The position numbers and the translations under genes are program-made. 64,000 bases of DNA from Flavobacteriales bacterium (GTDB lineage Bacteria; Bacteroidota; Bacteroidia; Flavobacteriales_C; GCA-002722245), in assembly GCA_046074525.1 (NCBI GenBank), contig JBJTOK010000079.1, positions 9,894 to 73,893 on the forward strand, written 5' to 3'. This document shows positions 2,662-38,943 of this stretch, in pieces (the stretch's first letter is position 1; the number at the start of each line of letters is the position of its first letter). The notes below the pieces were generated by a model that had not been told where the DNA came from, did no database searches, and saw nothing but the letters and a program-made list of their open reading frames with translations.

Positions 2662-2672
2662 AGTATATAATT

Positions 2673-4409: not shown

Positions 4410-4420
4410 ATAGAAGAAGT

Positions 4421-17800: not shown

Positions 17801-19975
17801 ATGGCGAAAACTTACATGCTGCAAACTTCCAATGATTCTATCAACTGGACAGATGTTAAACAAGTGAACGACAATGCTGCTGAATTGAATGACCACACAG
17901 GTTTAACGGCTTCCGGTAAGTATGTTCGCATTTATGGAACAGAAAGAACAACAGGTTACGGTTACTCTATCTTCGAGCTGGAAGTATACGGAACTCCTTC
18001 TGCTGTGACCAATGCGAATCCAACAGTAAGCTTGACAGCACCTGTGAACAATGCTTCGTTTACTGCTCCGGCCAGCATTTCTATCTCGGCTAATGCTGTC
18101 GATGCTGATGGCACTGTAAGCAAAGTTGATTTTTACAATGGTGCTACTTTGCTGGGCACCGATAATACTGCGCCTTACACTTATACCTGGAGCAATGTGG
18201 CTGCCGGAACTTATGCGATCACAGCAAAAGCCACCGACAATCAAAATGCAACTACCACTTCAGCTGCAGTGAATGTAACAGTGAATGCCGTCAGTGGAAC
18301 CAACCTTGCACTGAGCAAAATCATCTGGTCTTCTTCCAATGAAAATGGAGGCACACCTGCAACAGGCGCTAACGACGGCGTAGCGAATACAAGATGGTCA
18401 TCCAAATTCGCCGATCCGCAGTGGATCACTGTTGACCTCGGTGCTTCATACGACATCAACCGCGTAAAAATTACCTGGGAAAATGCGAAAGCAAAAGATT
18501 ACCAAATTCGTATGTCGAATGACACGATCAACTGGACTACTGTTAAACCAGTTTCTGGTAATACGGCTACAGTGAATGATCACACCGGATTGACAGGCTC
18601 TGGTCGCTACTTGAGAATTTACGGTACAGCAAGAACAACTGCTTACGGTTATTCCATCTTTGAACTGGAAGCGTACGGTACATTGGCAGGTGTGAGCAAT
18701 ACTGCTCCAACAGTGAGCCTGACTTCACCAGCCAACAACGCCACGTTTACTTCACCAGCCAGCATCTCTATCGCGGCTACTGCTGCCGATGCTGATGGAA
18801 CAGTAAGTAAAGTTGATTTCTATAATGGTGCTACTTTGCTGGGAACAGCAACTGTTGCTCCTTATACTTTCAGCTGGAACAATGTTGCTGCAGGAACTTA
18901 TACCATCACCGCACAAGCTACCGATAACCAAAACGCAGTAACAACATCTGCTGCAGTTAATATTACGGTGAATACGCCTGCGAATGTTGCTCCGACTGTG
19001 AGTTTGACTTCACCTTCGAACAACGCTGTGTTTACTTCGCCGGCTGCTATCTCCATTGCAGCCAACGCTGCCGATGCTGACGGAACTGTAAGTAAAGTGG
19101 ATTTCTACAATGGCGCTACTTTACTGGGTACCGATAACACTGCTCCTTATACTTTCACCTGGAGTAATGTAGGGACCGGAACTTATGCTATCACCGCAAA
19201 GGCGACCGATAATTCCAATGCAGAAACAACATCTGCTGCTGTAAATGTAACAGTGAATGCTGCTACCAATGTAAATTTGGCTTTGAGTAAACTCACCTGG
19301 GCTTCTTCTATTGAGAATGGTGGTACACAAGCTTACAAAGCAACAGATGGTGTAGCCAATTCAAGATGGTCGTCAAAATTTGCGGATCCACAATGGATCA
19401 CTGTTGACCTTGGTGCTGTTTACGATATCAACCGTGTGAAAATTACCTGGGAAAATGCGAAAGGTAAAAATTACCAGGTGTTGGTTTCCAACGACACTGT
19501 AAACTGGACGTCTGCAAAAACAGTAACTGGTAACACAGCGTTGGTGAATGATCACACTGGTTTAACTTCTACCGGTCGCTATGTTAGAATTTACGGTACT
19601 GCCAGAACAACAGGTTACGGTTATTCTATTTTCGAACTGGAAGTTTATGGAACCTTGTCTCCTGCTCCTGCGCCAATGGCTGCTGAAGAAACAACAACTA
19701 CTGTTGTGGATTTGATTTCAGTAAAAGAAGGAGTAGTGACTTATCCGAATCCTTTCAGCAATGAACTTACAGTGATTGCGCTTTTCCAAACTCCTTCCAT
19801 GGTTAATCTGCTCATCGTAGATGTGAAAGGTTCCGTGGTAGTCGATAGGGATTATGAAAACACCAGCGGTCACTTTGAAAATAAAATCAACGTGGAGAAT
19901 TTACCAGCCGGACAATATGTGCTGAAATTATTTTCGGGTAACGAAGTGTTTACTCAAAAATTAGTGAAGTACTAA
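14873..19975 (+). CDS. Giant (1700 aa) T9SS-secreted surface protein. It has an N-terminal PQQ-type glucose/sorbosone-dehydrogenase-like beta-propeller, an Ig (I-set-like) domain, four [discoidin F5/8 type C + bacterial Ig] modules and a T9SS type-A CTD.
   Basis: The GSDH-like motifs are (GFLGMALH, HNGGAMVFKNGYLYLCIGE, GKVLRLLDDGQPAPGNPY, IWAIGMRNPWSMSMDP, NYDYGWG). The repeated discoidin blocks are (NSRWESQFADPQ...VKITWENAKAKNY...YGYSIYEFEV). The C-terminal Por tail is (YPNPFSNEL...GQYVLKLFSGNEVFTQKLVKY). Confidence 0.8.
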   Translation: MKNKSSAKRKYGGVLQVCSMRSLFLAALLTLLGGVSANLLAQLPTGFVARKLTTNNIKECVKIEHAPDGRIFMAERSGALKVLKDGVVTTITTVNTTTADEQGFLGMALHSSFAQNGKLYVYYTSADKTKHYLDVIVLDAASQIVSNTRLMEFDPILAGYHNGGAMVFKNGYLYLCIGESNTQQQAQLLDTYRGKVLRLLDDGQPAPGNPYYNVAGASRQKQSIWAIGMRNPWSMSMDPVSGKLFVGNVGGGYEEINDVTTPDPAKNYDYGWGTAGQSGPGQSSGTILPAFCYNKTNWYTPTANGAWNAPSSCAITTALFFNPANTNYPNEYKNKFYFGDWCHDWLRSIDPNNPSAGFQEPFLSSALHRILGLSVGIDGNIYYSEYAGTGNIWRLEYTLSNTPIVVNQPTSQTIYAQDAVSFSVSASGTGPLSYKWQKNGVDIPGATSSTYTIGSAAVSDGGNYKAIVYNAYGEAISSEAVLTVKPYNAIPVADIITPLSSNTASVLDVINYSGDATDAEDGTLPASAFEWEVRVFHKDCGACEHWHPGPAATDGVKSGSFIADNGGETSANVWFRLILRVTDSEGRVGIDSVDLQPNKVVLTVNSNRPGLQVAIGSSSNTPYTKTQVVNNATNMTAISPQTFGDTVYTFSSWDHGGPASQNFRVPNVNTTYKANFIGTYVPNTNIALNKKAYSTSNQNAGNNASKAVDGVANSRWESQFADPQALVVNLGAVYNITRVKITWENAKAKNYELQTSNDSINWTPIKSVSDNATDINEWSNLAGTGKFIRMYGTQRTTAYGYSIYEFEVFGALAPGGNLDPAVSITAPANNASFAAPAAINITANASDADGTVSKVDFYNGTTLLGTDNTAPYAFPWNNVAAGTYTISAKATDNGGAVATSSIAVTVTGASSNSNIALGKYTSASTVLNGSGNTALKATDGIADSRWESEFADPQWIMVNLGAKYDISQVKIKWENAMAKTYMLQTSNDSINWTDVKQVNDNAAELNDHTGLTASGKYVRIYGTERTTGYGYSIFELEVYGTPSAVTNANPTVSLTAPVNNASFTAPASISISANAVDADGTVSKVDFYNGATLLGTDNTAPYTYTWSNVAAGTYAITAKATDNQNATTTSAAVNVTVNAVSGTNLALSKIIWSSSNENGGTPATGANDGVANTRWSSKFADPQWITVDLGASYDINRVKITWENAKAKDYQIRMSNDTINWTTVKPVSGNTATVNDHTGLTGSGRYLRIYGTARTTAYGYSIFELEAYGTLAGVSNTAPTVSLTSPANNATFTSPASISIAATAADADGTVSKVDFYNGATLLGTATVAPYTFSWNNVAAGTYTITAQATDNQNAVTTSAAVNITVNTPANVAPTVSLTSPSNNAVFTSPAAISIAANAADADGTVSKVDFYNGATLLGTDNTAPYTFTWSNVGTGTYAITAKATDNSNAETTSAAVNVTVNAATNVNLALSKLTWASSIENGGTQAYKATDGVANSRWSSKFADPQWITVDLGAVYDINRVKITWENAKGKNYQVLVSNDTVNWTSAKTVTGNTALVNDHTGLTSTGRYVRIYGTARTTGYGYSIFELEVYGTLSPAPAPMAAEETTTTVVDLISVKEGVVTYPNPFSNELTVIALFQTPSMVNLLIVDVKGSVVVDRDYENTSGHFENKINVENLPAGQYVLKLFSGNEVFTQKLVKY

Positions 19976-20017
19976 GAGGTTCAGTAATGTGAATTTTTAG
20001 AAACGTTTTATCATAAG

Positions 20018-20052
20018 ATAGCCCCTCTTTGCAGAGGGGCTATTTTTTTTTA
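20018..20052 (+). terminator. Intrinsic terminator after giant gene 1 (atagcccctct ttgc agaggggctat + T9).
   Basis: An 11-bp perfect stem, a 4-nt loop and a U-tract lie 43 nt after the stop. Confidence 0.6.
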
Positions 20053-20301
20053 TCCCTCTTGCGAGGCTTTATTTTACAGGTATTTCAGGATTGTGTGAAT
20101 GATATTGTACTGTTTGTGAATAATTGAATGCCACTTTTTTTGACCCCATGAGAACGATTGTGCTCCTGTTTGCGAATGATTTGTTCCAGTTGTACGACAT
20201 CTGCGAACGTAGCTTTGTGGGGAAGATTCTCGTGAGTCATTGTTTTCCGCATAAACACGACCCAAGAGAATGGGTATAGTAAATAACTAAAAACTAAAAG
20301 A

Positions 20302-23300
20302 ATGAAAAACAAATCATCCACAAAAAGAAAGTATGGAGGAACACTGCAAGTGTGCTCTATGCGTAGTCTTTTCCTTGTGTCGCTATTGATGCTGCTGGGA
20401 GGAGTATCCCAAAGTTTGTTTGCACAATTGCCGGAAGGCTTTGTGAAAAACAAATTAACCAACAACAACATCGCCGATGCAGTAAAAATGGAACACGCTG
20501 CTGACGGCAGAATTTTTATTGCCGAACTGGGAGGTAAAATTAAAGTGCTGCAAAACGGTGTGGTATCACTTGTGCATAGTGTTGCCACCAATACCAATGA
20601 TGAGCAGGGTTTGTTAGGTATTGCTCTTCATACCAATTTTGCCACCAATGGTAAATTGTATTTGTATTACACCGCTCCCGACAAATCAAAACATTTTTTG
20701 GATGTGATTGTTGTGGATGGCGATAACCAGGTAGTGTCATCCACCCGTGTTATGGAATTTGATCCTATATTATTCGGCTACCATAACGGTGGTGCAATGC
20801 TGTTTAAAAACGGTTATTTGTATTTGTGTATCGGCGAAAGTAATGCTCCGCAGTACGCTAATGATCTTACTACTTACCGTGGTAAAATTTTGCGTTTGCT
20901 GGATGACGGTCAGCCTGCGCCTGGCAACCCTTACTACGATACTCCGGGCGCCAACCGCCAGCAAAAAAGCATCTGGGCAACAGGAATGCGTAATCCATGG
21001 TCGATGAGTATGGATCCTACCACCCAAAAAATATATGTGGGTAACGTAGGTGGAACTTACGAAGAGATCAACGATGTAACAGCTCCCGATGCTGCGAGAA
21101 ATTACAATTACGGTTGGGCGGCTTCCGGTAAATCCGGATCGGAACAGGATGCCAATACTATCCTTCCTGTGTTTTGTTATAGCGGCGCAGAGGCGATTCA
21201 AAAATGGCAGTCGCCCACTACACAAGGCGACTGGATACAAGGCTCCTGTGCAATCACTACGGGAACATTTTTCAATCCTGCCATCACCAATTATCCGGCG
21301 GAATACAGAAACAGATTTTATTTTTCCGACTGGTGTCAGCTATGGATCAGAAGCATCAATCCTGCGAATACCACCACGGGTTTTCAAACCAATTTTGCTG
21401 ATCAGGGTTTCAACAGAATTTTGGGGTTGAGCACAGGTATCGACGGAAACCTCTATTACATTGAGCATGCAGGCGGAGGAAATATTTACCGACTGGAATA
21501 CACCTTGTCTAATCAGCCTGTCATCGTAAACAATCCATCTTCTCAAACGGTGTATGCCCAGGATGCAGTTTCTTTTTCGGTAGCTTCATCAGGTGCCAAT
21601 CCTAAGTCTTATCAATGGCAAAAAAACGGTACTAATATTTCAGGTGCAACAGCGAGCACTTATGCTATCTCTTCTGCAGCAGAAGCCAATGCAGGAAATT
21701 ACAGAGTAATTGTGAGCAACAGCTATGGTGCTGATACCAGTGATGCAGCGGTGTTGACCGTATTGCCTTACAATGCTATTCCGGTAGCGCACATCACATC
21801 ACCTGCTTCTACAGTAACGGCAAGTGTTTTGGATGTGGTGAACTATTCAGGAACAGGATCAGATGCCGAAGATGGAATATTGCCGGCTTCTGCATTCAAT
21901 TGGGAAGTGCGTGTTTTCCACAAAGATTGCGGAACCTGTGAGCACTGGCATCCTGGTCCGAATGCACCCGACGGTGTGACTTCAGGATCTTTCACAGCCG
22001 ACAACGGAGGAGAATCTTCTTCCAACGTTTGGTTTCGTTTGATTTTAAGAGTAACGGATTCAGAGGGAAGAGTGGGGACGGATTCAGTAGATCTTCAACC
22101 CAACAAAGTGGTATTGACTGTGAACAGCAGCAAACCAGGTTTGCAGGTGGTGATCGGATCTTCTTCCATTACGCCCTACAACAAAACACAGGTAGTGAAC
22201 AATGCCATTAATATTACTGCTATCACACCGCAAACTATTGGTGATACAGTGTATACCTTCAGTTCATGGGATCATGGTGGAGTGGCTTCACAAAGCATCC
22301 GAGTGCCTAATGTGAACACTACTTACAAAGCTAATTTTACTGCTGCTTACGTAAGCAACACCAATCATGCTTTGAATAAAATTGCCGGTTCATCATCTAA
22401 TCAGGGTGGCAATACTGCTAATAAAGCGGTAGATGGAGATTTCAATTCCCGCTGGGAAAGTCAGTCTTCCGATCCGCAATTCCTGGTGGTGAATTTAGGT
22501 GCAGTTTACGACATCAATCGCGTGAAAATTTACTGGGAAAATGCAAAAGCGAAAAATTATCTGGTGGAAACTTCTATGGACTCTGTGGTGTGGGATAAGA
22601 TGAAAGAGGTGACCGATAATGCAACGGATATCAATGAGTGGAGCAACTTATCTGGTACAGGAAAGTACGTTAGAATTTTCGGAACGGAAAGAACAACCAA
22701 CTACGGCTATTCAATTTTTGAATTGCAGGTATTTGGTGCTTTGCATCAGGGAGGTTCTAATACTTTGCCTACAGTGAGCATCACTGCGCCATCCAACAAT
22801 GCCAATTTTTCAACACCAGCCGAAATCAATATTACAGCCAATGCTGCCGATGCAGACGGTACTGTAAGCAAGGTTGATTTTTACAATGGTGCTACTTTGC
22901 TTGGAACCGATAACACTGCTCCTTATGCGTATACCTGGAGCAATGTTGCTGCGGGAACTTATACCATCACAGCAAAAGCAACCGATAATCAGAATGCAGT
23001 AAAGACTTCTTCTGCTGTGACTGTAGTAGTAGGTGCGGTAGCGACTAACGTAGCGCTGAACAAAACTACTTATGTGTCTTCTTCTTTGGGAGGAAATTCC
23101 AAAGCGAATGCAGTAGATGGTAACTTGAATTCCCGCTGGGAAAGTGCTTTCTCTGATCCGCAATACATCACTGTGGATCTCGGTGCTGTTTACGACATCA
23201 GTCGCGTACACATCGTGTGGGAAAATGCGAAAGCGAAGAACTACCGTGTTCTGGCTTCTAACGATACATTGAGCTGGCCGGATACTTTGAAAACAGTGGT

Positions 23301-25314
23301 GAACAACACGCAGGACGACAACAACTGGACTGGTTTGTCATCCAGCCGCCGCTTTGTTAGAATTTACGGAACAGAAAGAACGACGAACTATGGCTATTCT
23401 ATTTTTGAACTGGAAGTTTATGGCGTGCCTGCATCCGGCGGAAATGCGAATCCGACAGTAAGCTTGACCGCTCCGGCAAACAACGCTTCGTTCAATGCTC
23501 CGGCTACTATCAATATCACCGCCAACGCAGCTGATTCGGATGGTACAATAAGCAAAGTGGATTTCTACAATGGTACTACCTTATTGGGAACCGACAACGC
23601 TGCACCTTATGCTTACACCTGGACTGGCGTTGCTGCCGGGACTTATGCGATCACGGCAAAAGCTACCGACAACCAGAATGCAGTAACTACTTCTTCTGCG
23701 GTGAATGTTACCGTGAGCTCACCAAACACTGTGAACCTGGCGTTGAACAAACCAACTTACTCTTCTTCGGATGAAAATGCCGGCACCCCTGCAAGCAACG
23801 CAACCGATGGGAATGGCAACTCCCGCTGGTCGAGTGAGTTTTCTGATCCACAACACCTCATTGTGAATTTAGGCGCTGTGTATGACATCAGCCGAATTAA
23901 AATCAATTGGGAAAATGCAAAAGCGAAGAAGTACAATTTGCTGGTATCGGTAGATAGCTTGGTTTGGGACACTGTGAAAACAGTAAATAACAATGAACAA
24001 AATGAGAATGACTGGACAGTGAGCGGCACTGGTCAATACGTGAAAATGTATGGCACCGAAAGAACCACTCCTTACGGTTATTCTATTTTTGAATTAGAAG
24101 TGTATGGCGCTGCTGCCAATGCGCAGCCAACTGTGAGTATCACATCCCCTGCTAACAACGCCGGTTTCCTTTCTCCTGCAACGATCAGCATTACAGCTAA
24201 TGCAGGGGATGCCGACGGAAGTGTGAGTCAGGTTGATTTCTACAACGGCGCTACTTTGCTGGGCAGCGACAATACTGCTCCATATTCTTATACCTGGACC
24301 AACGTTGCTGTTGGATCATATGCCATCACAGCTAAGGCTACCGATAACAACGGTGCAGTGACAACGTCATCTGCCGTAAATTTTACGGTAAGTGTACCTG
24401 TTAACCTTGCGCTGAACAAGCCAACGTATTCTTCCACTGATGAGAATGGCGGAACCCCTGCAGCTAGCGCTACCGACGGTAATGCGAACTCAAGATGGTC
24501 GAGTGAGTTTTCTGATCCGCAATACCTCATCGTGAATTTAGGCACTGTGTACGATATCAGCCGCATTAAAATCAACTGGGAAAATGCAAAAGCGAAGAAA
24601 TACGATTTGCTGGTGTCTGTTGACAGCTTGAGCTGGGATACCTTGAAAACAGTACTCAACAACACCCAGAACAACAATGACTGGACGGTGAGTGGTACAG
24701 GAAAATACGTGAAAATGTATGGTGCTGAAAGAACTACGCCTTATGGTTATTCCATCTTCGAATTCGAAGTGTACGGAACCGAACATCAGGAGGTAGGAGG
24801 TTCTAACACAAATCCAACAGTGAGCATTACATCTCCTTCTAATGGTGCAATCTTCACTGCTCCGGCAAGCATCACTATCACAGCGAATGCTGCCGATAGC
24901 GATGGAAGCGTAAGCAAAGTAGATTTCTACAACGGTACTACTTTATTGGGTACCGATAATACTGCACCTTATTCTTACACCTGGAACAACGTGGCTGTAG
25001 GTAACTACGCTATTGTTGCCAAGGCTACAGATGACCAGAATGCAGTGAATGCTTCTTCAATTGTGAATGTAGTGGTGAATTCTCCTAATACTGTTAACCT
25101 TGCGCTGAACAAGCCAACCTATTCTTCTACGGATGAGAATGGCGGAAACCTGGCAGTAAATGCTACCGATGGTAACAACAACTCCCGCTGGTCGAGTCAG
25201 TTTGCTGATCCGCAACACCTAACGGACATAACTATGGCTTCAATTTCAGCAATTGTAAATACGGTTTGTACTTTGATGGAAGCAATGGAGTGGGAATTAT
25301 GTTCACCGACATGA
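20302..25314 (+). CDS. Second giant T9SS-type surface protein paralog (GSDH-like propeller, Ig domain, five discoidin/Ig modules). It is truncated: the fifth discoidin domain breaks at about 25220, the frame then runs 31 aberrant codons to a stop, and there is no CTD.
   Basis: The first 60 nt are almost identical to gene 1 (MKNKSSxKRKYGGxLQVCSMRSLFL). The same domain order is seen. The last repeat reads ..NSRWSSQFADPQHL and then departs from the repeat consensus (expected IVNLGAVYDI..). Confidence 0.7.
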   Translation: MKNKSSTKRKYGGTLQVCSMRSLFLVSLLMLLGGVSQSLFAQLPEGFVKNKLTNNNIADAVKMEHAADGRIFIAELGGKIKVLQNGVVSLVHSVATNTNDEQGLLGIALHTNFATNGKLYLYYTAPDKSKHFLDVIVVDGDNQVVSSTRVMEFDPILFGYHNGGAMLFKNGYLYLCIGESNAPQYANDLTTYRGKILRLLDDGQPAPGNPYYDTPGANRQQKSIWATGMRNPWSMSMDPTTQKIYVGNVGGTYEEINDVTAPDAARNYNYGWAASGKSGSEQDANTILPVFCYSGAEAIQKWQSPTTQGDWIQGSCAITTGTFFNPAITNYPAEYRNRFYFSDWCQLWIRSINPANTTTGFQTNFADQGFNRILGLSTGIDGNLYYIEHAGGGNIYRLEYTLSNQPVIVNNPSSQTVYAQDAVSFSVASSGANPKSYQWQKNGTNISGATASTYAISSAAEANAGNYRVIVSNSYGADTSDAAVLTVLPYNAIPVAHITSPASTVTASVLDVVNYSGTGSDAEDGILPASAFNWEVRVFHKDCGTCEHWHPGPNAPDGVTSGSFTADNGGESSSNVWFRLILRVTDSEGRVGTDSVDLQPNKVVLTVNSSKPGLQVVIGSSSITPYNKTQVVNNAINITAITPQTIGDTVYTFSSWDHGGVASQSIRVPNVNTTYKANFTAAYVSNTNHALNKIAGSSSNQGGNTANKAVDGDFNSRWESQSSDPQFLVVNLGAVYDINRVKIYWENAKAKNYLVETSMDSVVWDKMKEVTDNATDINEWSNLSGTGKYVRIFGTERTTNYGYSIFELQVFGALHQGGSNTLPTVSITAPSNNANFSTPAEINITANAADADGTVSKVDFYNGATLLGTDNTAPYAYTWSNVAAGTYTITAKATDNQNAVKTSSAVTVVVGAVATNVALNKTTYVSSSLGGNSKANAVDGNLNSRWESAFSDPQYITVDLGAVYDISRVHIVWENAKAKNYRVLASNDTLSWPDTLKTVVNNTQDDNNWTGLSSSRRFVRIYGTERTTNYGYSIFELEVYGVPASGGNANPTVSLTAPANNASFNAPATINITANAADSDGTISKVDFYNGTTLLGTDNAAPYAYTWTGVAAGTYAITAKATDNQNAVTTSSAVNVTVSSPNTVNLALNKPTYSSSDENAGTPASNATDGNGNSRWSSEFSDPQHLIVNLGAVYDISRIKINWENAKAKKYNLLVSVDSLVWDTVKTVNNNEQNENDWTVSGTGQYVKMYGTERTTPYGYSIFELEVYGAAANAQPTVSITSPANNAGFLSPATISITANAGDADGSVSQVDFYNGATLLGSDNTAPYSYTWTNVAVGSYAITAKATDNNGAVTTSSAVNFTVSVPVNLALNKPTYSSTDENGGTPAASATDGNANSRWSSEFSDPQYLIVNLGTVYDISRIKINWENAKAKKYDLLVSVDSLSWDTLKTVLNNTQNNNDWTVSGTGKYVKMYGAERTTPYGYSIFEFEVYGTEHQEVGGSNTNPTVSITSPSNGAIFTAPASITITANAADSDGSVSKVDFYNGTTLLGTDNTAPYSYTWNNVAVGNYAIVAKATDDQNAVNASSIVNVVVNSPNTVNLALNKPTYSSTDENGGNLAVNATDGNNNSRWSSQFADPQHLTDITMASISAIVNTVCTLMEAMEWELCSPT

Positions 25315-28300
25315 AGATCACCGGCTGTGAATACGGTGTGTATGCAGCAGCAAATACAGGCGGTGTTCTGCAGTTGTATAAATGGAATATTTCGGCCACC
25401 GATGCTGCTATTTTTTCCGATAAAACTTCAGGCACTAAAATACTTTTGCAGGAATCCGCCATCGCTTCAGGAAAAGTGCAATTGCAAGGTGGAACCTTGC
25501 TTGCTACTGATAACGATTTCAATAACACGGCGCCGCAAATCCAGTTTGAATACAACTCCCGAGGTAACCTCACCGGCAATCGTTTTAAAAATGCAGTAAA
25601 CATTTCCGAAAAATCTGTTTTCCTCAACCAGATTGATCACACTCCGGTAAGCTCTATTAAACTTCCTGCGTATTATGAATTTATACCGCAATCGAAAAAA
25701 CCTTCACGTAATGTAATGTACAATGTGTTGAATTATGGTGTTACTGCGGGAACCCGCGATGCTATTCCTGCAGGAGATGCAACAACAGGAATTCAAAATG
25801 CACTCAATCAGGCGAAGAATGATGGTGGTGGAATTGTTTATCTTCCGCCGGGGCATTACAGAATCAATGGTTCTCTCACGATTCCCACAGGTGTGGAATT
25901 AAAAGGTTCGGTGGATATAGGGGAGTTCCCTTTGGGGCCTGGATCCATCCTTGAAATTTATGGAAACAAAGGAAATGAAAATGGAGCTTCTCCTGTGATT
26001 TTACAGCAGGGTAGCGGTTTACGTGGTGTGGTGTTCAATTATCCCGACCAGGTTTTTTGTACTGTACTTCCCAATGCGGTGTTGAAATTTCCTTATTCGG
26101 TTCAGGTGCAAGGCAGTGATGCCTATATCGTAAATGTTGGATTCCGTGCAGCTTACAAAGCAGTAGATTTATTTTCCTACAAAAGTGATCGCTTCTATCT
26201 CGATTTCCTTACGGGACATGTATTCAATGAAGGTGCTAAAGTGGGCGCCGCCTCTGCTGATGGTATAATCGCAAATATGCAGTTCAATACCATCGCTTAC
26301 AACTGCGGTGATGAATCGAAATTTGGCGGATGGCCTAATTCGCTTCGCTCGCCATGTTCGGGTGATGCTACTAAAAATCCTTACGACTACAACGCTAAAT
26401 ATCTCGACTTCCTTATCGTGGGCAATGCGCCGGATATCATGCTGTACAACGATTTTAATTATGATGCGAATCATGGCTTGATTTTGCAGGATGGTGCTTC
26501 GGGAACTGCCATCGGTTTAGGTTTGGATGGCGATCGTACCGGAATTTTAGTGGATGGAAATGCCAATTTCTCTTTCATCAATACACAGGATGTATCTCTT
26601 AATTATGATGCCTTGGGAGGTGAACAATCCAGCTATCTGAAAACGACTTCCAACTTCAATGCTGGTTCCATTAATCTCTTCAGTTGCGATTATTGGGGAC
26701 AAGCTACCAGCAGTGGTATTGTGATGGATGGCGCAGGAACAGTGAATCTGCAATCATCAAATTTTGAGAGTCCCGGCAGCCAGTCTTTTGCCCAAGTCAA
26801 TAACGGAACGTTGAATATCAACAACTCGGTAGTGAACCCAAAAGATCCTCTGGTGAACGGTACGCATCTGTCGGGTGTTAATATCGTGGGTTCCGATGTA
26901 ACTCCTTATACCATCAATACGAACTTGCTTGGCAATTACGATAACAATATAGGCACCGCAAAACCTTCGCCAACCAGTTCTCTCAGCAGGACAGGTTGGA
27001 TTGCTACATCGTCAAGGAATGTTAATTCGGGACGTGTTGCTCAAAATGGAATTGATGGAGATGCTAATACCAGCTGGAGCAGTGGCTGGCAAAACGATGG
27101 CGCAGCCATCTGGTACCAGGTAGATATGCTTGTGCCGCAGACTTTCAATGAAGTGATTCTGGATTACAGCGGAAGTCCGAACGACGGTCCTGCATCTTAT
27201 ACTTTCTCAGTATCCAATGATGGCGTTAACTGGACGCAGGTAGCCTCCGGCACAGGAAATAATATGATGACCATTATTTCCTTTCCTGAAACTACAGCAC
27301 GTTATATCCGCATGGATAAGCCTGCCAATGCAAGTAAAGCCAATTTCCTGGCGATTCATGAATTGTATGTATTCAATGTAAAAGCTGCCGCAGGCAATCT
27401 GGTGGCGGTGCCGATGAAAAATCCCTTGTACCACCAGTTCACATCGCCATTGTATGGTTCTGCGGGAACAGGAAATATGTACACTGCCGATCCTTCTGCA
27501 CACGTATGGGCCGATGGTCGTTTGTATGTTTATGCATCACACGATATGGAGCCAGCACAAGGGTGCGATAGAATGGATCGCTATCATGTTTTCTCTACCG
27601 ATGATATGACCAACTGGGTAGATCATGGTGAAATTCTCAGCGCGAGTCAGGTTTCCTGGGGGCGCGCTGAAGGTGGTTTCATGTGGGCACCTGATTGCGC
27701 ATACAATCCGGCCAATCAGACTTACTATTTTTATTATCCTCATCCAAGCGGTACCGATTGGGGTGCTACCTGGAAAATAGGCGTGGCTACTTCTAAGGAA
27801 CCTGCAGCTAATTTTACCGATCAGGGCTATATCACAGGAATGTCATCTCTCATTGATCCTTGCGTTTTTGTCGACGATGACGGTCAGCCTTATATTTATC
27901 AGGGTGGCGGTGGAACCTGTATGGGGGGTAAACTCGATAAAAATGACTGGACCAAATTGGATGGCGCCATGCAGCCTATGACGGGTTTGGTCGATTTTCA
28001 CGAAGCTACATGGGTACACAAATACAATGGAAAATATTATTTGTCGCACGCCGATAACCACGGCGTTGATGGCAATCAGCTGAAATATGCTGTGAGCAAC
28101 AGTCCGCTCGGACCATGGACCGACATGGGTGTGCTGATGTACGCCACGGGTTGCGATACGCATCATGGTTCAATTGTGGAATACAAAGGTCAGTGGTGGT
28201 CTTTCTATCACACCAGCAATTTCTCAGGCGAATACAACCTGCGTTCGGTATGTGCAGATAAGCTTTACTACAATAATGATGGTAGCATTCAACCAGTAAA

Positions 28301-29519
28301 CAACTGGGGTACTGCTTTCAAGAGCAATGTGGTGGCGGTTACCAACAACACTACAGATGTTGCTCTCACTGTGGAAGCCGAGGATTTCAATAATGGTGGT
28401 TCACATTATGGTTACTGGGATAAAACCGATGCCAATTCAGGAGGCAATAATTCCCGTTCAGGAGAAGGAGTGGATATTGAAACCCGTGGTAATGTGGTGG
28501 ATATAGGATGGATTGAGAATGGCGAATGGTTGAGGTATACGGTGAATGTTACCAAGGCAGGCTTGTACGATATCGATTTCACTGTGGCTGCAGGCAATAC
28601 GGGAGGAAAATTCCATTTGAGCGTGAATGGCACTAATTTATCGGGCGACCTAACTGTTCCTAATACAGGAGATTGGGGGAATTGGACTACTGTTACGGCT
28701 CTCAATATTCCTTTGCAGGCGGGCGAGCAGTACATTGATTTGCGTTTCAATGGCGGATTCAATCTGGATAAGTTTCAGTTCCGCAAATCAGCACCATACC
28801 AGGGCACGGCGTATAATGGTCCGCACAACGTTCCCGGAACTTTTGAAGCCGAAGATTATGACAATGGTGGAACAGGAGTGGCTTATTATGACAGCGATGT
28901 CGCCAACAACAGCGGTGCTTACAGAACAACAGAAGGCGTAGATCTGGAAACCTCCAACGGTAGTACGCACATCAGCTGGTCGAATAGTGGTGAGTGGACC
29001 AAGTACACTATTGTTGTGGCTACTGATGGCACTTATGAAGTGCAGATTCCTGTGTCTACGGGCAATGGCGCAGCAGGGACCTTGTCGCTCACTTTCGATG
29101 ATGTGTATACTGTACCTGTCGCCAGCATCAATACCGGCAACTGGAACACCTATCAATCACTTACGATCAAAGACATTCAGCTTACGGCCGGAACGCACGT
29201 AATGAAGCTGAATATTGGCGGAAACATCAATGTAGATCAATTCACTTTTACGAAAAGCATTACCACAGCAATGCCGGAAGCGACTGCGCAGCATCACATC
29301 AGCATTTATCCTAACCCTTCGGCCGATGGTATTTTTAATATCAAAGCCACGCAGCAGGGGCAGCTGATCATCAGTGATGTGGCAGGCAAAATGGTGCTGA
29401 GCGAAATAGTGGCTGAGCCGGGAAACATTGATTTGTCGGGCCGTGCGTCGGGTATTTATATTGCTACGTTTATTACCGGAGAGCAGACTTACAGGTTTAA
29501 GCTGATGGTGAATAAATAA
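25266..29519 (+). CDS. 5'-truncated composite glycoside hydrolase, possibly a pseudogene or gene fusion. It has a Pectate_lyase_3-type right-handed beta-helix (GH55-like exo-beta-1,3-glucanase architecture), a discoidin/CBM32-like domain, a GH43-like five-bladed propeller, two CBM6-like domains and a T9SS type-A CTD. The coding frame is open from 25209 (after a TGA) with no signal peptide. The ORF-track start is a TTG.
   Basis: The beta-helix start motif is YNVLNYGVTAGTRDA..DATTGIQNALNQAKNDGGGIVYLPPGHYRING. The discoidin block is NTSWSS...YIRMD. GH43 motifs are (ADPSAHVWADGRLYVYASHD, WAPDCAY, DPCVFVDDDG). Two modules of TVEAEDFNNGG...LDKFQF / TFEAEDYDNGG...VDQFTF are present. The Por tail is (ISIYPNPSADGIF...YRFKLMVNK). 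Confidence 0.6.
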   Translation: MYFDGSNGVGIMFTDMKITGCEYGVYAAANTGGVLQLYKWNISATDAAIFSDKTSGTKILLQESAIASGKVQLQGGTLLATDNDFNNTAPQIQFEYNSRGNLTGNRFKNAVNISEKSVFLNQIDHTPVSSIKLPAYYEFIPQSKKPSRNVMYNVLNYGVTAGTRDAIPAGDATTGIQNALNQAKNDGGGIVYLPPGHYRINGSLTIPTGVELKGSVDIGEFPLGPGSILEIYGNKGNENGASPVILQQGSGLRGVVFNYPDQVFCTVLPNAVLKFPYSVQVQGSDAYIVNVGFRAAYKAVDLFSYKSDRFYLDFLTGHVFNEGAKVGAASADGIIANMQFNTIAYNCGDESKFGGWPNSLRSPCSGDATKNPYDYNAKYLDFLIVGNAPDIMLYNDFNYDANHGLILQDGASGTAIGLGLDGDRTGILVDGNANFSFINTQDVSLNYDALGGEQSSYLKTTSNFNAGSINLFSCDYWGQATSSGIVMDGAGTVNLQSSNFESPGSQSFAQVNNGTLNINNSVVNPKDPLVNGTHLSGVNIVGSDVTPYTINTNLLGNYDNNIGTAKPSPTSSLSRTGWIATSSRNVNSGRVAQNGIDGDANTSWSSGWQNDGAAIWYQVDMLVPQTFNEVILDYSGSPNDGPASYTFSVSNDGVNWTQVASGTGNNMMTIISFPETTARYIRMDKPANASKANFLAIHELYVFNVKAAAGNLVAVPMKNPLYHQFTSPLYGSAGTGNMYTADPSAHVWADGRLYVYASHDMEPAQGCDRMDRYHVFSTDDMTNWVDHGEILSASQVSWGRAEGGFMWAPDCAYNPANQTYYFYYPHPSGTDWGATWKIGVATSKEPAANFTDQGYITGMSSLIDPCVFVDDDGQPYIYQGGGGTCMGGKLDKNDWTKLDGAMQPMTGLVDFHEATWVHKYNGKYYLSHADNHGVDGNQLKYAVSNSPLGPWTDMGVLMYATGCDTHHGSIVEYKGQWWSFYHTSNFSGEYNLRSVCADKLYYNNDGSIQPVNNWGTAFKSNVVAVTNNTTDVALTVEAEDFNNGGSHYGYWDKTDANSGGNNSRSGEGVDIETRGNVVDIGWIENGEWLRYTVNVTKAGLYDIDFTVAAGNTGGKFHLSVNGTNLSGDLTVPNTGDWGNWTTVTALNIPLQAGEQYIDLRFNGGFNLDKFQFRKSAPYQGTAYNGPHNVPGTFEAEDYDNGGTGVAYYDSDVANNSGAYRTTEGVDLETSNGSTHISWSNSGEWTKYTIVVATDGTYEVQIPVSTGNGAAGTLSLTFDDVYTVPVASINTGNWNTYQSLTIKDIQLTAGTHVMKLNIGGNINVDQFTFTKSITTAMPEATAQHHISIYPNPSADGIFNIKATQQGQLIISDVAGKMVLSEIVAEPGNIDLSGRASGIYIATFITGEQTYRFKLMVNK

Positions 29520-29532
29520 TCTATTGTTATTG

Positions 29533-29578
29533 AGAGTGTGAGGGCTTGTTCCTCACACATTCTCAGGTTTTTTTCCTA
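29533..29578 (+). terminator. Terminator-like hairpin (gagagtgtgagg..cctcacacattctc) followed by a T7 tract.
   Basis: It is read directly from the sequence, 14 nt after the stop at 29519. Confidence 0.45.
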
Positions 29579-29693
29579 ATTTGGTAATCAGTCTGTTTGG
29601 TGTTTTGTTGAACCTTTTTTATTGAGGATCGTTACACTCAGCAGCTACGAAATGGCGTAAAAGCGCCATTGGATTAAATTCAAAATCTGATTT

Positions 29694-31301
29694 GTGAAAT
29701 ATAAGTTTTTATTGATTTGTTGTTTCGCCTTTACTTTCGTGGCCTTTGCCAGTGAAGACGAAGATACCATGTATGTCCAGCTGGACAGTCTTTTGGAACA
29801 AAAACCACAACTTGTAAAAGATAAGCAACAGCGTATTCAATCGCTGGCCCGTATGTTGTTCGATAGCGAGCGCCGAAAAGACGTGCAGAGCCAATTTCAA
29901 TTTTGCGCCAAGCTTTTTGAAGAATACAAATCCTTCCAGTACGATTCGGCTTTTAAGTACACCGACCGTATGCTTAAGCTTGCCTACGTCCTCAATGATC
30001 CCGCGAAAATCAACAACGCAAAAGTCAATTTTAGTTTTATTTTCCTTTCATCTGGGATGTTTAAGGAAGCCCTGGATACTTTGTCTACAGTTGATGCGAT
30101 GGCGCTGCCTGTAGCGGAAAGAATCAATTTCTATAAAGTTTTTGCCCGCACTTATTTTGATCTTTCGGATTTCTCGCAAAGTCAGCAATACAGTCAGTCT
30201 TATAATAATAAAGGCGATGAGTATGTCACCCGTGCTCTCGATCTTTCGGAGAAAGCGTCGGCAGAGTACCTTTTCCTTAAGGCTTGGAAATACATGCGTA
30301 TCCGCAACATTGAAATGGCCATTAAAACCTACCAGAAGCTTCTCTTGTATTATAATCTCACCCAACACGAATATGCTATTGTAACTTCCAGTTTGAGCTT
30401 CATGTACATGCTCGATAACAACCAGGAGAAGCACAAGGAATTCCTGATTAAAGCTGCCATTGCGGATATCCGGGGATGTGTGTTTGAAACAGTGGCATTG
30501 CGCAATCTTGCGGAAATTGTATACAAGGAAGGGAATTATGAGCGTGCTTACCGCTACATCAAAATTGCCAATGATGATGCTTATGCCTATGGCGCAAAAT
30601 TCCGCCAGGTGCAGGTGGCTTATCTCCTGCCGATGATAGAAGCTGCCCAAATGAATGAAGTGGAAAGCAAAAGAAGAAATCTCATCGTTTTCGCGCTCTT
30701 TGCGAGTTTAGTGAGCGTATTGATCTTTATTTTGTACTTCATAGTTTACCGCAACAACATTAAACTTAAACTGGCTAAACAAAGTTTGGTGGAGTCACAT
30801 GTGCATTTACAGGTACTCAATAATACCCTTCAGGATGCCAATAAAATCAAGGAGGAATATATCGGTCACTTCTTCACAGCGATTTCAGACTACATAGATA
30901 AATTGGATAAACTCAAGAATTCCATCGACAGGAAAATTACGCAAAACAGGACTGATCAGATACGTGATGTGGTGAAGCAAATTAATCTTAAGGCGGAAAG
31001 GGAGGAACTATATGGTAATTTCGATAGGATTTTCCTCAAAATATTTCCTGATTTCATCCCTAAATTCAATAGCTTCCTCAATGAAGATGCAAAATATGTA
31101 ATTGAGGAGAATGCCCCGTTGCCGCCTGAATTGAGAATTTTTGCTCTGATTCGTTTAGGGATCAATGACAATGAGAAAATTGCGCAGTTTTTAGGATATT
31201 CCATCAATACGATTTATACCTATAAAACGAGATTGAAGAACAAAACCATTGTCCCTAATGAAAAGCTGGAAGTGCGGGTGATGGAAATCAAAGCGAATTG
31301 A
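29694..31301 (+). CDS. Membrane-anchored one-component regulator candidate. It has a signal peptide, an extracytoplasmic TPR-like region, a single TM helix and a cytoplasmic coiled-coil plus C-terminal helix-turn-helix (DUF6377-like architecture).
   Basis: The signal is MKYKFLLICCFAFTFVAFA and the TM segment is LIVFALFASLVSVLIFILYFIVY. The C-terminal LuxR/HTH-like segment is ELRIFALIRLGINDNEKIAQFLGYSINTIYTYKTRLKNK. Confidence 0.5.
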   Translation: MKYKFLLICCFAFTFVAFASEDEDTMYVQLDSLLEQKPQLVKDKQQRIQSLARMLFDSERRKDVQSQFQFCAKLFEEYKSFQYDSAFKYTDRMLKLAYVLNDPAKINNAKVNFSFIFLSSGMFKEALDTLSTVDAMALPVAERINFYKVFARTYFDLSDFSQSQQYSQSYNNKGDEYVTRALDLSEKASAEYLFLKAWKYMRIRNIEMAIKTYQKLLLYYNLTQHEYAIVTSSLSFMYMLDNNQEKHKEFLIKAAIADIRGCVFETVALRNLAEIVYKEGNYERAYRYIKIANDDAYAYGAKFRQVQVAYLLPMIEAAQMNEVESKRRNLIVFALFASLVSVLIFILYFIVYRNNIKLKLAKQSLVESHVHLQVLNNTLQDANKIKEEYIGHFFTAISDYIDKLDKLKNSIDRKITQNRTDQIRDVVKQINLKAEREELYGNFDRIFLKIFPDFIPKFNSFLNEDAKYVIEENAPLPPELRIFALIRLGINDNEKIAQFLGYSINTIYTYKTRLKNKTIVPNEKLEVRVMEIKAN

Positions 31302-31312
31302 ATCTGTTTGAA

Positions 31313-31386
31313 CTTGATTCACTTGATTTAAGGATTAAAAGACGGATTAGTAAATATCCTTTCGTCCTTAAATCAAGTGAATCAAG
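31313..31386. terminator. Perfect 22-bp inverted repeat (cttgattcacttgatttaagga / tccttaaatcaagtgaatcaag) with a 30-nt loop between the convergent regulator gene and rpe. It is a putative bidirectional terminator or structural element.
   Basis: The arms are perfectly complementary as read from the sequence. No strong U-tract is present. Confidence 0.4.
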
Positions 31387-31399
31387 GTTCAGACAAATA

Positions 31400-32050
31400 C
31401 TATACCCTCTTCAAATCAGCGATCGTTTGCACGGGATTTTTTGCGGCAAAAACAGCATTACCTGCCACCAGCACATCGGCACCACATTCCACCAATTGTT
31501 TGTAGTTGTTGAGTCCAACTCCTCCATCTATTTCAATAAGGGCTTTGCTTCCTGATATTGAGATAAGTTGCTTGAGTTTTTTGATTTTCTGGTAAGTGTG
31601 CTCAATGAATTTCTGTCCGCCAAAACCAGGGTTTACCGACATCAGCAAAACAACATCAATATCAGTGATCACATTTTCCAGAAGCTCTACATTCGTATGT
31701 GGATTGAGTGCCACGCCTGCTTTCATGCCTTCTGCTTTAATAGCCTGAATGCTGCGGTGTAAGTGCGGACAGGCTTCATAATGTACAGTAAGGATATCAG
31801 CGCCTGCTTTTTTGAAGGTGCTGATATATCTGTCGGGATTGATGATCATTAAATGCACATCCAAAGTTTTCTTTGCATGTTTTTTTATGGCTTCCAAAAC
31901 AGGAAAACCGAAAGAGATATTGGGTACAAATTCTCCATCCATCACATCGATATGAAACCAGTCGCCGGCGCTGTTGTTTACCATTTCAACGTCTCTTTGA
32001 AGGTTAGCGAAATCTGCCGCTAGGATGGAAGGAGCTATAAGATGAGCCAT
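31400..32050 (-). CDS. rpe: Ribulose-phosphate 3-epimerase.
   Basis: The N-terminus is MAHLIAPSILAADFANLQRDVEMV..., with FHIDVMDGEFVPNISFG and GADILTVHYEA motifs. The length is 216 aa. Confidence 0.9.
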   Translation of the reverse strand: MAHLIAPSILAADFANLQRDVEMVNNSAGDWFHIDVMDGEFVPNISFGFPVLEAIKKHAKKTLDVHLMIINPDRYISTFKKAGADILTVHYEACPHLHRSIQAIKAEGMKAGVALNPHTNVELLENVITDIDVVLLMSVNPGFGGQKFIEHTYQKIKKLKQLISISGSKALIEIDGGVGLNNYKQLVECGADVLVAGNAVFAAKNPVQTIADLKRV

Positions 32051-32116
32051 GAGTTTTTTTTCAAAGTTAAAAAGAAGTTCAATGTTCGATAATCGATGTT
32101 CAAACTTTTTGATAAA

Positions 32117-32148
32117 TAAAAAAGCCGCGGTTGATCCGCGGCTTTTTT
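32117..32148 (-). terminator. Bidirectional intrinsic terminator (A6 aagccgcgg ttgat ccgcggctt T7) downstream of rpoD.
   Basis: There is a 9-bp GC-rich stem flanked by A and T tracts. It lies 21 nt after the rpoD stop. Confidence 0.65.
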
Positions 32149-32168
32149 TAGAAAAGTAGGGGCTTTTG

Positions 32169-33038
32169 TTACCCTAAATATTTAACAAGTATGTTGCTTC
32201 TAGAAGTATGCTTGAGTCGGCGCAGGGCTTTCTCTTTGATTTGTCGCACTCTCTCCCTGGTCAAATCGAATTTTTCGCCGATTTCTTCCAGTGTTAGCGA
32301 CTGGTTATCAGTTCCCAAGCCGAAGTACAGTACAATCACATCTGCTTCGCGTGGAGTAAGTGTATCCAGGGTTCTCTTGATTTCTTCCTTGAGTGAAGCA
32401 TCAATAAGGTCGCTGTCGGGACGCTTGCTGTCTTCGCTGGTCATTAAATCATACATATTACCGGCATCTTCACCCTCCTGCAAAGGGGCGTCCATTGAGA
32501 CGTGGCGGGAATTGCTTTTCAGTGATTCTCTCACTTCGTCCACCGGGAGATCCAGTGCAATCGCTATTTCATCAGCTGATGGCTCTCTTTCAAATTCCTG
32601 CTCCAACTGGGAGAAGGTTTTGTTGATCTTATTGATAGCGCCAATTTTATTCAGCGGTAATCGCACGATACGAGCCTGTTCGGCTAAAGCCTGCAGTATA
32701 GACTGACGGATCCACCATACGGCGTAAGAAATGAATTTAAAGCCTCTCGTTTCGTCGAAACGCTGAGCTGCTTTAATCAATCCTAAATTGCCTTCGTTGA
32801 TCAAATCCGGAAGAGTTAATCCCTGGTTTTGGTATTGTTTGGAAACCGATACCACAAATCGGAGATTGGCACGTGTTAATTTTTCCAAAGCTGCGGCGTC
32901 GCCGGCTTTAATTTTTTTAGCGAGTTCAACTTCCTGCTCGGCGGTGATAAGTCCCTCCTTGCTGATTTCATGGAGATACTTGTCGAGAGAAATGGTTTCT
33001 CTGTTGGTAACCTGTTTGCTTATCTTAAGTTGTCTCAT
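32169..33038 (-). CDS. rpoD: RNA polymerase primary sigma factor (short Bacteroidota-type sigma-A, 289 aa).
   Basis: Sigma-70 regions 2-4 are present ([40 protein letters not shown] and [28 protein letters not shown]). Confidence 0.9.
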
Positions 33039-33164
33039 GTATATTTGGTGTTAAAATATTTGTAATTCGTGGAGCAAAACTGTCTGTTTATCGAAACGCA
33101 AAGAAAGGTATTAGAGTTTCGGTAAAATGAAATTTATTTCCTTAGTTTTAAACAAAAGTCTTTC

Positions 33165-34499
33165 ATGAAGCATATCGTTTTATTAGGAGCCGGTCGGAGT
33201 AGCTCGGTTTTACTGGAATATCTCAAGGAGCATGCCATCGGCATGTTGTTGAAAATTAGTGTTGCAGATATCTCATTAAACCATGCAAAGGACATAGTAA
33301 AAAATCATTCCTCATTCAGTTTCCATGATTTGCAAAAAACACCTGCTGTAAAGGAAGAACTCATCAGCCAGGCAGATATTGTGCTTTCCATGCTACCTGC
33401 AAGTCTGCATATTGAAGTAGCCAAGCTGTGTTTACAGTATAAAAAACACCTTGTAACGGCTTCTTATGTTTCGCCTGAAATGAAGGCGATGGAAGAAGAA
33501 GTAAAAAATGCCGGATTGATCTTTATGAATGAAGCCGGATTGGATCCAGGATTAGACCACATGTCGGCAATGAAAATTATCGATCATCTTCGTGATGAAG
33601 GAGCGCTGTTGCACGGATTTGAATCTTTTTGCGGCGGACTCATCGCACCCGAAAGCGATGATAATCCGTGGCGATATAAATTTACATGGAATCCACGAAA
33701 TGTAGTGGTGGCCGGACAAGGCGGTGCTGCCATGTTTTTACAGGAAGGAACTTACAAATACATTCCTTACCACAAATTATTCCGACGCACCGAAGTCATC
33801 AATATTGAAGGTTATGGGAAATTTGAAGGTTATGCGAATCGTGATTCATTGAAGTATATAGATATCTACGGCTTACAAGGTATAAAAACTATTTTCCGCG
33901 GAACGCTGCGCCGACTGGGCTTTTGCCGTGCCTGGGATCTTTTTGTTCAATTGGGCATGACCGACGATAGTTATCGTATTCCTGATTCCGATAAGATGAC
34001 GCACCGGCAGTTCATCAATTTATTTCTCGCCTATAACAAACACGATTCCGTGGAGCTTAAGCTGAAGCATTACCTGAAGCTGGAGCAGGATGATGTGGAT
34101 ATTTGGGAAAAGCTGGAGTATACGGGCATTTTCAGCAATGAGAAAATCGGATTGAAAAATGCAACGCCTGCACAAATTCTTCAGCATATTTTAGAAAAGA
34201 AGTGGAAGTTGAATCACAACGATAAGGACATGATCATCATGTTTCATCGTTTCAACTATAAACTCAACAACGAAATGAAGGAACTTCATTCTTACCTCGT
34301 TGTGGAAGGAGAAGATGAAAACAACACAGCCATGGCCAAAACAGTTGGCTTGCCAGTGGGTATCATCGCAAAAATGATTTTGAATGATGAAATCAAAAGC
34401 CGCGGAGTGCTCGTTGCTGTGCAAAAAGAAGTGTACGATCCTGTGCTGGAGGAACTGAAAAAATACAACATTAATTTTATTGAGAAGCAGGCTATCTGA
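33165..34499 (+). CDS. Saccharopine dehydrogenase family protein (NAD(P)-binding Rossmann domain plus C-terminal domain).
   Basis: The N-terminus is MKHIVLLGAGRSSSVLLEYL. The length of 444 aa is typical for this Bacteroidota family. Confidence 0.75.
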   Translation: MKHIVLLGAGRSSSVLLEYLKEHAIGMLLKISVADISLNHAKDIVKNHSSFSFHDLQKTPAVKEELISQADIVLSMLPASLHIEVAKLCLQYKKHLVTASYVSPEMKAMEEEVKNAGLIFMNEAGLDPGLDHMSAMKIIDHLRDEGALLHGFESFCGGLIAPESDDNPWRYKFTWNPRNVVVAGQGGAAMFLQEGTYKYIPYHKLFRRTEVINIEGYGKFEGYANRDSLKYIDIYGLQGIKTIFRGTLRRLGFCRAWDLFVQLGMTDDSYRIPDSDKMTHRQFINLFLAYNKHDSVELKLKHYLKLEQDDVDIWEKLEYTGIFSNEKIGLKNATPAQILQHILEKKWKLNHNDKDMIIMFHRFNYKLNNEMKELHSYLVVEGEDENNTAMAKTVGLPVGIIAKMILNDEIKSRGVLVAVQKEVYDPVLEELKKYNINFIEKQAI

Positions 34500-36000: not shown

Positions 36001-36001
36001 T

Positions 36002-37286: not shown

Positions 37287-37364
37287 TGATTGTTTGATTT
37301 TTATTTGATCCTCCGGATTTTCGGGGAAGCATTAATACTTACCTTGATCGTGTAAAATTATCTT

Positions 37365-38852: not shown

Positions 38853-38943
38853 GCTTTCTTCTTTTTAAAAGAAGAAGGAATTAACGATCAAAAAATCGCA
38901 ATGATATAAGGAGGAAATTTTCTAAATGATTGTTCAGCAAGAA

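Follow-up and report, generated by a model that had tools for sequence, protein, structure and literature searches.

Does the long open reading frame (ORF) found at 25266..29519 (+ strand) of this DNA encode a working secreted enzyme, and is this enzyme directed against laminarin? The window, i.e., the whole stretch of 64,000 nucleotides taken from contig JBJTOK010000079.1 of a Flavobacteriales bacterium, carries at this place a mechanically called ORF of 1417 amino acids with a TTG start. A preliminary description had presented it as a composite cargo of the type IX secretion system (T9SS), made of a GH55-like beta-helix, a discoidin domain, a GH43 domain, two CBM6 modules and a C-terminal sorting domain (CTD). 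This description has the domains right; it overlooked, however, that the ORF is only a remnant, truncated at its 5' end and joined out of frame to a neighbour truncated at its 3' end. It is probable that one deletion of ~1.8-2 kb, flanked by a microhomology, truncated both genes and left an enzyme copy which is dead as a secreted enzyme. The object itself is an ordinary multi-modular T9SS carbohydrate-active enzyme (CAZyme), here pseudogenised; its moderately interesting part is a GH55-related beta-helix family which recurs with GH43.

Truncation of the enzyme gene and of its upstream neighbour

The enzyme frame is open only from 25209, i.e., right behind the TGA located at 25206-08. Its opening residues (SATPNGHNYGF...) are aligned with residue 299 of P0013 (66% identity) and with residue 307 of P0005, a 960-aa Cohnella protein. 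In the exhaustive library search, which covered 1.84 billion representatives, window residues ~2-5 fall at residue ~290 or later of most of the best 150 representatives, including all the closest full-length ones. No signal peptide is seen, i.e., no hydrophobic leader follows any of the candidate starts (TTG 25266, ATG 25299 and ATG 25311).

An intact orthologue of 1733 aa is found in a Flavobacteriales metagenome-assembled genome (MAG), JAHEZL010000023.1 (locus L001, 9896..15097). It has a signal peptide (MNYKFTHPTFLVLFSLFTFHLSSAQ), a complete first beta-helix and the same module order as the window, and it shares 82% identity with the window frame over 1436 residues (orthologue residues 299-1733). 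It is the only close relative obtained from a one-genome-per-species scan. Judged from this alignment, window 25209..29519 corresponds to the 3' 83% of a gene which would encode ~1730 aa when intact. The lost part contains 15 of the most conserved polar or aromatic positions of the family (W159...Y292, the invariant D280 among them). A metagenome scan for closer intact relatives, made with the N-terminus of the orthologue, gave only ~42-44% relatives, mostly from gut, which are of no help for rebuilding the deleted segment. When exact proteins were looked up, only the 1402-aa product starting at ATG 25311 was on record; the upstream ORF, the paralogue of this ORF and two neighbouring housekeeping proteins gave nothing.

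The upstream ORF is truncated at its 3' end. Its last discoidin domain is severed midway (...SSQFADPQHL): the match to the intact paralogue (68% identity) ends at residue 1641, i.e., residue 1510 of the paralogue, ~190 aa including the T9SS CTD are gone and 29 unrelated residues stand in their place. No terminator was found between the two remnants, unlike the case of the paralogue, which is followed by a strong one; this is consistent with the loss of the terminator of the truncated gene in the deletion. It must be noticed that the paralogue and the upstream ORF form a tandem of giant genes (~1700 aa), each with a signal peptide, a GSDH-like (PQQ sugar dehydrogenase-type) beta-propeller, Ig and 4-5 discoidin + Big_7 repeats. 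With their CTD, these giant GSDH/discoidin proteins are an unusual T9SS cargo, of which the second copy is the one hit by the deletion.

The junction was defined by comparing the window DNA on one side with the preceding discoidin copies and on the other with the DNA of the L001 orthologue. The discoidin-side DNA reads ..GATCCGCAACACCT.. and the beta-helix-side DNA, as in the orthologue, reads ..GCAACACC(A)AACGGACA.., the part common to both sides being only 8-10 nt long (Table 1). The enzyme frame is shifted by -1 with respect to the upstream frame, and therefore there is no fusion protein. Programmed -1 frameshifting within 25209-25314 would join both ORFs into a ~3070-aa protein with a signal peptide and a CTD; it fits with the upstream ORF having a signal peptide without CTD, the downstream one having a CTD without signal peptide, and the frames being offset by -1 over an overlap of ~100 nt. 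However, no canonical X XXY YYZ slippery heptamer was found in the overlap, the join would link two half-domains, and the orthologue and the paralogue show that elsewhere the two ORFs correspond to distinct genes, each of them complete. Such frameshifting is extremely improbable and was rejected on the grounds of the missing slippery site and of the half-domain join.

The reality of the junction itself has to be weighed. Logan contig SRR29270175_10286 (33.9 kb) matches window 20989..39519 at 100% identity, also across the junction, so that two assemblies agree base for base over it, and there is no N-run at this place. Both genes could nevertheless be intact in reality, the junction being a mis-join made by assembly or sequencing in a repeat-rich region: two paralogues of 68% identity and about nine discoidin/Big_7 units are present, the Logan contig ends at 20989, i.e., inside the upstream gene, the junction occurs in one sample only (JGI metagenome contigs do not contain its 26-mer), and a real scaffolding artefact exists in the homologous gene of a related MAG. 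However, the shared join is shorter than typical assembler k-mers and it pairs a discoidin domain with an unrelated beta-helix, not two repeat copies, which argues against mis-assembly. An artefact is thus considered unlikely.

A further point concerns the remnant itself, which could still work from ATG 25311 or TTG 25266, its GH43 and CBM6 modules (perhaps also the C-terminal beta-helix) being active in the cytoplasm or after export by another way. The ORF is long and intact, the GH43 triad is kept, and in the Logan assembly the downstream gene is called from ATG 25311, which forms an ATGA with the upstream stop. Moreover, amino-acid change is not accelerated: the relative-rate test (outgroup P0171) gives 62 vs. 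63 lineage-specific changes for the remnant and the orthologue, respectively, a result which neither supports nor refutes inactivation. The lack of excess change means that the event is recent, or that the remnant is still under selection, or that the test is uninformative. On the other side, T9SS cargo needs Sec export first and the remnant has no signal peptide; its N-domain is cut mid-helix, leaving an incomplete fold; its own promoter region is deleted; CBMs and a T9SS CTD would be pointless in a protein confined to the cytoplasm; and, among the matches listed, no full-length relative starts at this position. A working remnant appears improbable.

Some of the data weigh against a deletion which inactivated the enzyme gene: (i) the junction is known from assemblies only, in one sample, and possibly from the same read set as the assembly of the window; (ii) the remnant is uninterrupted for 1436 codons, without excess amino-acid change; (iii) the ATGA overlap would permit translational coupling, hence some expression; (iv) the size of the deletion is deduced from the paralogue and from an orthologue whose 5' flank differs; (v) the deleted segments are not found elsewhere within the 64-kb window, but could sit beyond it in the genome. 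A single microhomology-flanked deletion remains the probable explanation with these points taken into account. From its sequence, the window copy is most likely dead as a secreted enzyme.

Modules of the remnant and relation of the tandem beta-helix to GH55

Pfam and NCBIfam bear out the modules first listed (Pfam positions are given in residues of the 25266 ORF). The PF12708 signature is present at residues 153-215, at the start of the complete beta-helix (29.7 bits vs. a cutoff of 27). The tail of another beta-helix, already suspected ahead of this motif, is also real: it spans ~150 residues by BLASTP and in the AF2 model of the window fragment (pLDDT 88), where its strands occupy 6-143. The complete C-terminal beta-helix has kept all the family-conserved residues E230, D236, D320, N356, N360 and D440 (25209-frame numbering). 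The discoidin domain may be called «CBM32-like», as it matches the F5/8 type C family, the CAZy CBM32 label being putative. CBM_6 scores 118 bits over two stretches, the two copies sharing 37% identity. The CTD is recognised both by Por_Secre_tail (PF18962, residues 1347-1414, 35.8 bits vs. a cutoff of 27) and by TIGR04183 (43.3 bits vs. a cutoff of 23). The view of the ORF as a secreted T9SS cargo thus holds for the CTD but is not supported for secretion, the copy having lost its signal peptide and about two thirds of its N-domain.

The GH43 catalytic codons are Asp 27489, Asp 27855 and Glu 28002. The triad is intact: YTADPS, LIDPC and FHEATW are aligned with D41/D168/E215 of CjAbf43A, and also with 5glk, 5a8c and 4mlg. 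The comparison of catalytic residues proposed earlier for GH43 is therefore positive. The nearest PDB structures (5glk, 5a8c, 4mlg and 3qed, E 1e-39 to 1e-41) are solved exo-pentosidases. The whole catalytic domain and the Asp/Asp/Glu are aligned with CoXyl43 (5GLK, a GH43_1 beta-xylosidase), CjAbf43A (3QED, a GH43_29 alpha-1,2-arabinofuranosidase) and CtGH43 (5A8C). The domain is about equally similar to several subfamilies, so that no single subfamily or substrate is indicated. Unlike these enzymes, the GH43 domain of the window is not standalone but embedded in a five-module T9SS protein. The intact form resembles the multi-modular T9SS CAZymes of Bacteroidota, i.e., a signal peptide (in the orthologue), catalytic modules, CBM6 and discoidin modules and a Por_Secre_tail/TIGR04183 CTD; it differs from them by the presence of two different catalytic-type modules per chain, and the window copy by the loss of the signal peptide.

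GH55 enzymes have N and C beta-helix domains connected by a linker, with the active site at the interface; their functional marks are a general-acid Glu with an adjacent Tyr, an E-H pair, a WxW aromatic block and relay residues in the N-domain (PMC10637969). The general acid is E502/Y505 in SacteLam55A and E614/Y617 in MnLam55A (motif Q-T/S-E-T-x-Y), and the N-domain relay comprises T149/E140, Q174 and S198, to which F152 is added. Like GH55 (PcLam55A 3EQN, CtLam55 5M5Z, MnLam55A 8JHH, SacteLam55A), the family considered here has two linked tandem beta-helices, each opening with the PF12708 motif GAxGDGxTDDTxAIQ...G..(V/I)..P.G.Y.

With a profile of 27 family sequences, the best PDB matches are 3eqn (E 1.2e-14, in two colinear stretches), 5m5z (6e-14) and 8jhh (8.5e-4). 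The same three structures rank first when the AF2 model of full-length P0005 (two complete domains, pLDDT 87) is submitted to Foldseek, at 11-12% identity, with a TM-score of 0.31/0.38 and a root mean square deviation of ~12-13 A over the two domains. The comparison of the C-domain of the family with that of GH55 by hhalign gives a probability of 97-98%, with only ~85 columns confident; the GH55 C-domains were rebuilt for this purpose from PDB alignments, the 3eqn fragment having retrieved only exon-sized fungal fragments. GH55 is thus the nearest solved relative of the tandem beta-helix module. SacteLam55A is not matched by the family profile, and a phmmer search of PDB with the window fragment gives no GH55 match at E<=1.

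GH55 is also absent from the top 50 fold matches of the AF2 model of the window fragment. These are headed by single beta-helix enzymes, i.e., GH91 (DFA-IIIase/inulin fructotransferase), the AlgE4/AlgE6 epimerases, GH87 and GH28 (TMt 0.55-0.65), which share the N-terminal PF12708 motif. They are single-domain proteins with ~10-15% identity and different chemistries, and the likeness stands at the superfamily level only.

WxWxxDH, SEH and Q(T/S)ETxY can be read directly in 3eqn, 5m5z and 8jhh, and none of the 27 aligned family members, window included, has any of these motifs. The position aligned with the general acid is E, Q, L or T in the family and Ile in the window, in a part where the alignment is of low confidence. 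As for the N-domain relay residues and F152, the corresponding ~298 residues are deleted from the window copy, and in the intact family the alignment with GH55 is reliable only over the first 60 residues of this domain. The comparison of catalytic residues with GH55 thus turns out negative. Unlike GH55, the family has its own conserved residues, i.e., (W/N)YPEQ in both domains, D280, E532, D620, N656/N660 and D739 (P0005 numbering), and its module is followed by a discoidin domain.

The comparison leads to the conclusion that the GH55-like label is correct for the tandem layout and for GH55 as nearest solved relative, and that GH55 membership and exo-beta-1,3-glucanase activity are not supported. 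It was considered whether the two beta-helices form a true GH55 exo-beta-1,3-glucanase, acting on laminarin with the nearby GH16 genes. The rank of GH55 among the profile and full-length-model matches, the hhalign probability for the C-domain, the tandem layout and the presence of GH16 genes in the window all point this way. However, single-sequence searches find no GH55, the identity and TM-scores are low, the catalytic and subsite -1 motifs are missing from the whole set, the N-domain is largely gone in the window copy, and the genomic contexts of the relatives are no laminarin loci. This identification is unlikely. In our reading of the sequences, the tandem module would rather be a distinct uncharacterised family, with the ancestry and the two-domain layout of GH55 and a different active site. 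The GH55 catalytic signature is absent from this remote homologue, and the GH55/laminarin label should not be propagated.

Table 1. Features of the locus (window coordinates; all on the + strand)
Feature	Coordinates	Strand	Description and basis
Intact paralogue of the upstream gene	14873..19975	+	Ends with discoidin, linker and T9SS CTD; terminator at 20015-20046
Intrinsic-terminator-like hairpin	20015..20046	+	14-bp stem and T-run, strong; 3' of the intact paralogue
Upstream ORF	20302..25314	+	1670 aa; overlaps the enzyme ORF; cut mid-domain at the junction
Upstream gene, genuine part	20302..25221	+	Signal peptide, GSDH-like propeller, Ig, 4x discoidin + Big_7, onset of a fifth discoidin; Pfam
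Deletion junction	25212..25221	+	Microhomology of 8-10 nt, GCAACACC(TA), occurring both in the discoidin reading (DPQHL) and in the beta-helix reading (ATPN)
Out-of-frame tail of the upstream ORF	25222..25314	+	TDITMASISAIVNTVCTLMEAMEWELCSPT and stop; TGA 25312-14 overlaps ATG 25311 of the downstream frame
N-terminal beta-helix remnant (last third) and interdomain linker	25209..25718	+	Residues 299-~470 of the intact orthologue; BLASTP to the L001 orthologue, P0005 and P0013
Complete C-terminal right-handed beta-helix	25719..26975	+	Opens with the PF12708 motif YNVLNYG...GGGIVYLPPGHYRING; Pfam, AF2 (pLDDT 88)
F5/8 type C domain (discoidin, CBM32-like)	27003..27365	+	Residues 580-700; PF00754 74.8 bits, PF22633 52.4 bits
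GH43 catalytic domain	27483..28286	+	Residues 740-1007; PF04616 119.4 bits vs. cutoff 32.2, model positions 10-287/288
CBM6 module 1 (..EAEDFNNGG..)	28356..28790	+	PF03422
CBM6 module 2 (..EAEDYDNGG..)	28827..29258	+	PF03422, second stretch; PDB CBM6 matches
Type A T9SS C-terminal sorting domain and stop codon	29304..29519	+	Extreme C-terminus; PF18962, TIGR04183
SusR-family glycan-utilisation regulator	29694..31301	+	NF058541 574 bits vs. cutoff 480; directly 3' of the enzyme gene

Family, fusion with GH43 and genomic context

The tandem beta-helix family counts 1542 representatives at E<=1e-3 and 351 clusters (50% identity) at E<=1e-30. Its members are labelled by NCBI only as «glycosyl hydrolase family 28-related» or «discoidin domain-containing», and literature searches found no characterised member. 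A domain scan covered the six closest representatives. P0171 (1884 aa, 57% identity) has two beta-helices, a discoidin domain, GH43, two CBM6 and a CTD, and P0176 (1883 aa, 47% identity) has GH43 with CBM6/CBM35. GH43 is absent from the other four; CBM6 is found in P0170 and P0177, and Big_2 in P0172 and P0177. The combination of a GH55-like module with GH43, first described as unusual, is thus found in the L001 orthologue and again in P0171 and P0176, i.e., the fusion is recurrent and not a one-off.

It is possible, and we propose it only tentatively, that the tandem beta-helix + discoidin core defines a large GH-like family of GH55 ancestry, with another active site and probably another substrate, fused to GH43 and CBM6 in at least three lineages (window/L001, P0171 and P0176).

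The proposed tie between the enzyme and the laminarin genes located upstream is not supported. Between the enzyme gene and the GH16 genes, which are found 13-19 kb upstream and on the opposite strand, there are genes for an aldo-keto reductase and a GH2 enzyme as well as the two giant GSDH genes. The only neighbour which is syntenic with the orthologue is the SusR-family regulator (L001 15274..16881); it directly follows the enzyme gene here as in L001 and may therefore be its regulator. Coprobacter homologues of the family are found near GH35 and GH43 genes.

The other neighbours of the L001 orthologue include a GH87-like alpha-1,3-glucanase with CBM6 and CTD (20258..22444, - strand), a GH13 alpha-amylase with CTD (4480..6345, + strand) and several more CTD proteins without other Pfam domain. 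In Cohnella cellulosilytica (L003, JBHMDN010000048.1, 6843..15259), the 960-aa homologue lies between a GH38 alpha-mannosidase (4-nt overlap) and a GH95, and the locus also contains ABC sugar-transporter components and DUF5696. The gene content of this locus hints at a mannose/fucose-containing glycan rather than laminarin.

A homologue of Coprobacter fastidiosus (MAG L004, DNWC01000148.1, 8685..12141) is split into 265-aa and 831-aa parts near the same position as in the window. It was rejected as a second case: the split is an N-run scaffold gap with duplicated flanks and not biology. An intact 1101-aa paralogue adjoins this split homologue.

As for the GH16 genes of the window, the one located at 6387..7289 is adjoined by five ORFs of 192-650 aa (1687..6373, - strand; 7313..7891, - strand; 8419..9042, + strand) with no Pfam match at E 0.1. 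They may be uncharacterised surface glycan-binding or accessory proteins.

Proposed history and function

The deletion of ~1.8-2 kb, bounded by the microhomology GCAACACC(TA), would have removed three successive pieces: (i) from the giant GSDH/discoidin-repeat gene, the remaining part of the discoidin domain together with the T9SS domain and probably the terminator; (ii) the intergenic region with the promoter of the enzyme gene; (iii) from the enzyme gene, the first ~298 codons (~894 nt), which encode the signal peptide and roughly two thirds of the N-terminal beta-helix. The upstream product could still enter the periplasm, its T9SS signal being gone. The downstream remnant would at best be expressed by co-transcription and re-initiation at the ATGA overlap of 25311; its product would not leave the cytoplasm, and its beta-helix module would be impaired.

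The intact gene would encode, in order, a signal peptide, two tandem right-handed beta-helices, a discoidin domain, GH43, two CBM6 modules and a T9SS CTD. Its product would be exported by Sec and then secreted by the T9SS through the CTD, and the discoidin and CBM6 modules would target it to the substrate. GH43 would act as an inverting exo-acting pentosidase, xylosidase- or arabinofuranosidase-like, by means of its Asp/Asp/Glu. The tandem beta-helix would bring a second, hydrolase-like activity, as a remote GH55 homologue with other active-site residues.

The locus would offer a clean natural case in which a single microhomology-flanked deletion inactivates two T9SS cargo genes, each remnant retaining just one of the two secretion signals. 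For CAZyme discovery the window copy is the wrong template, and the intact orthologue of JAHEZL010000023.1 or P0171 are better ones. A concrete lead to the substrate comes from the repeated fusion with GH43: if the tentative view of the family given above is true, the intact protein would be a two-activity machine for a branched pentose-containing glycan, not for laminarin.

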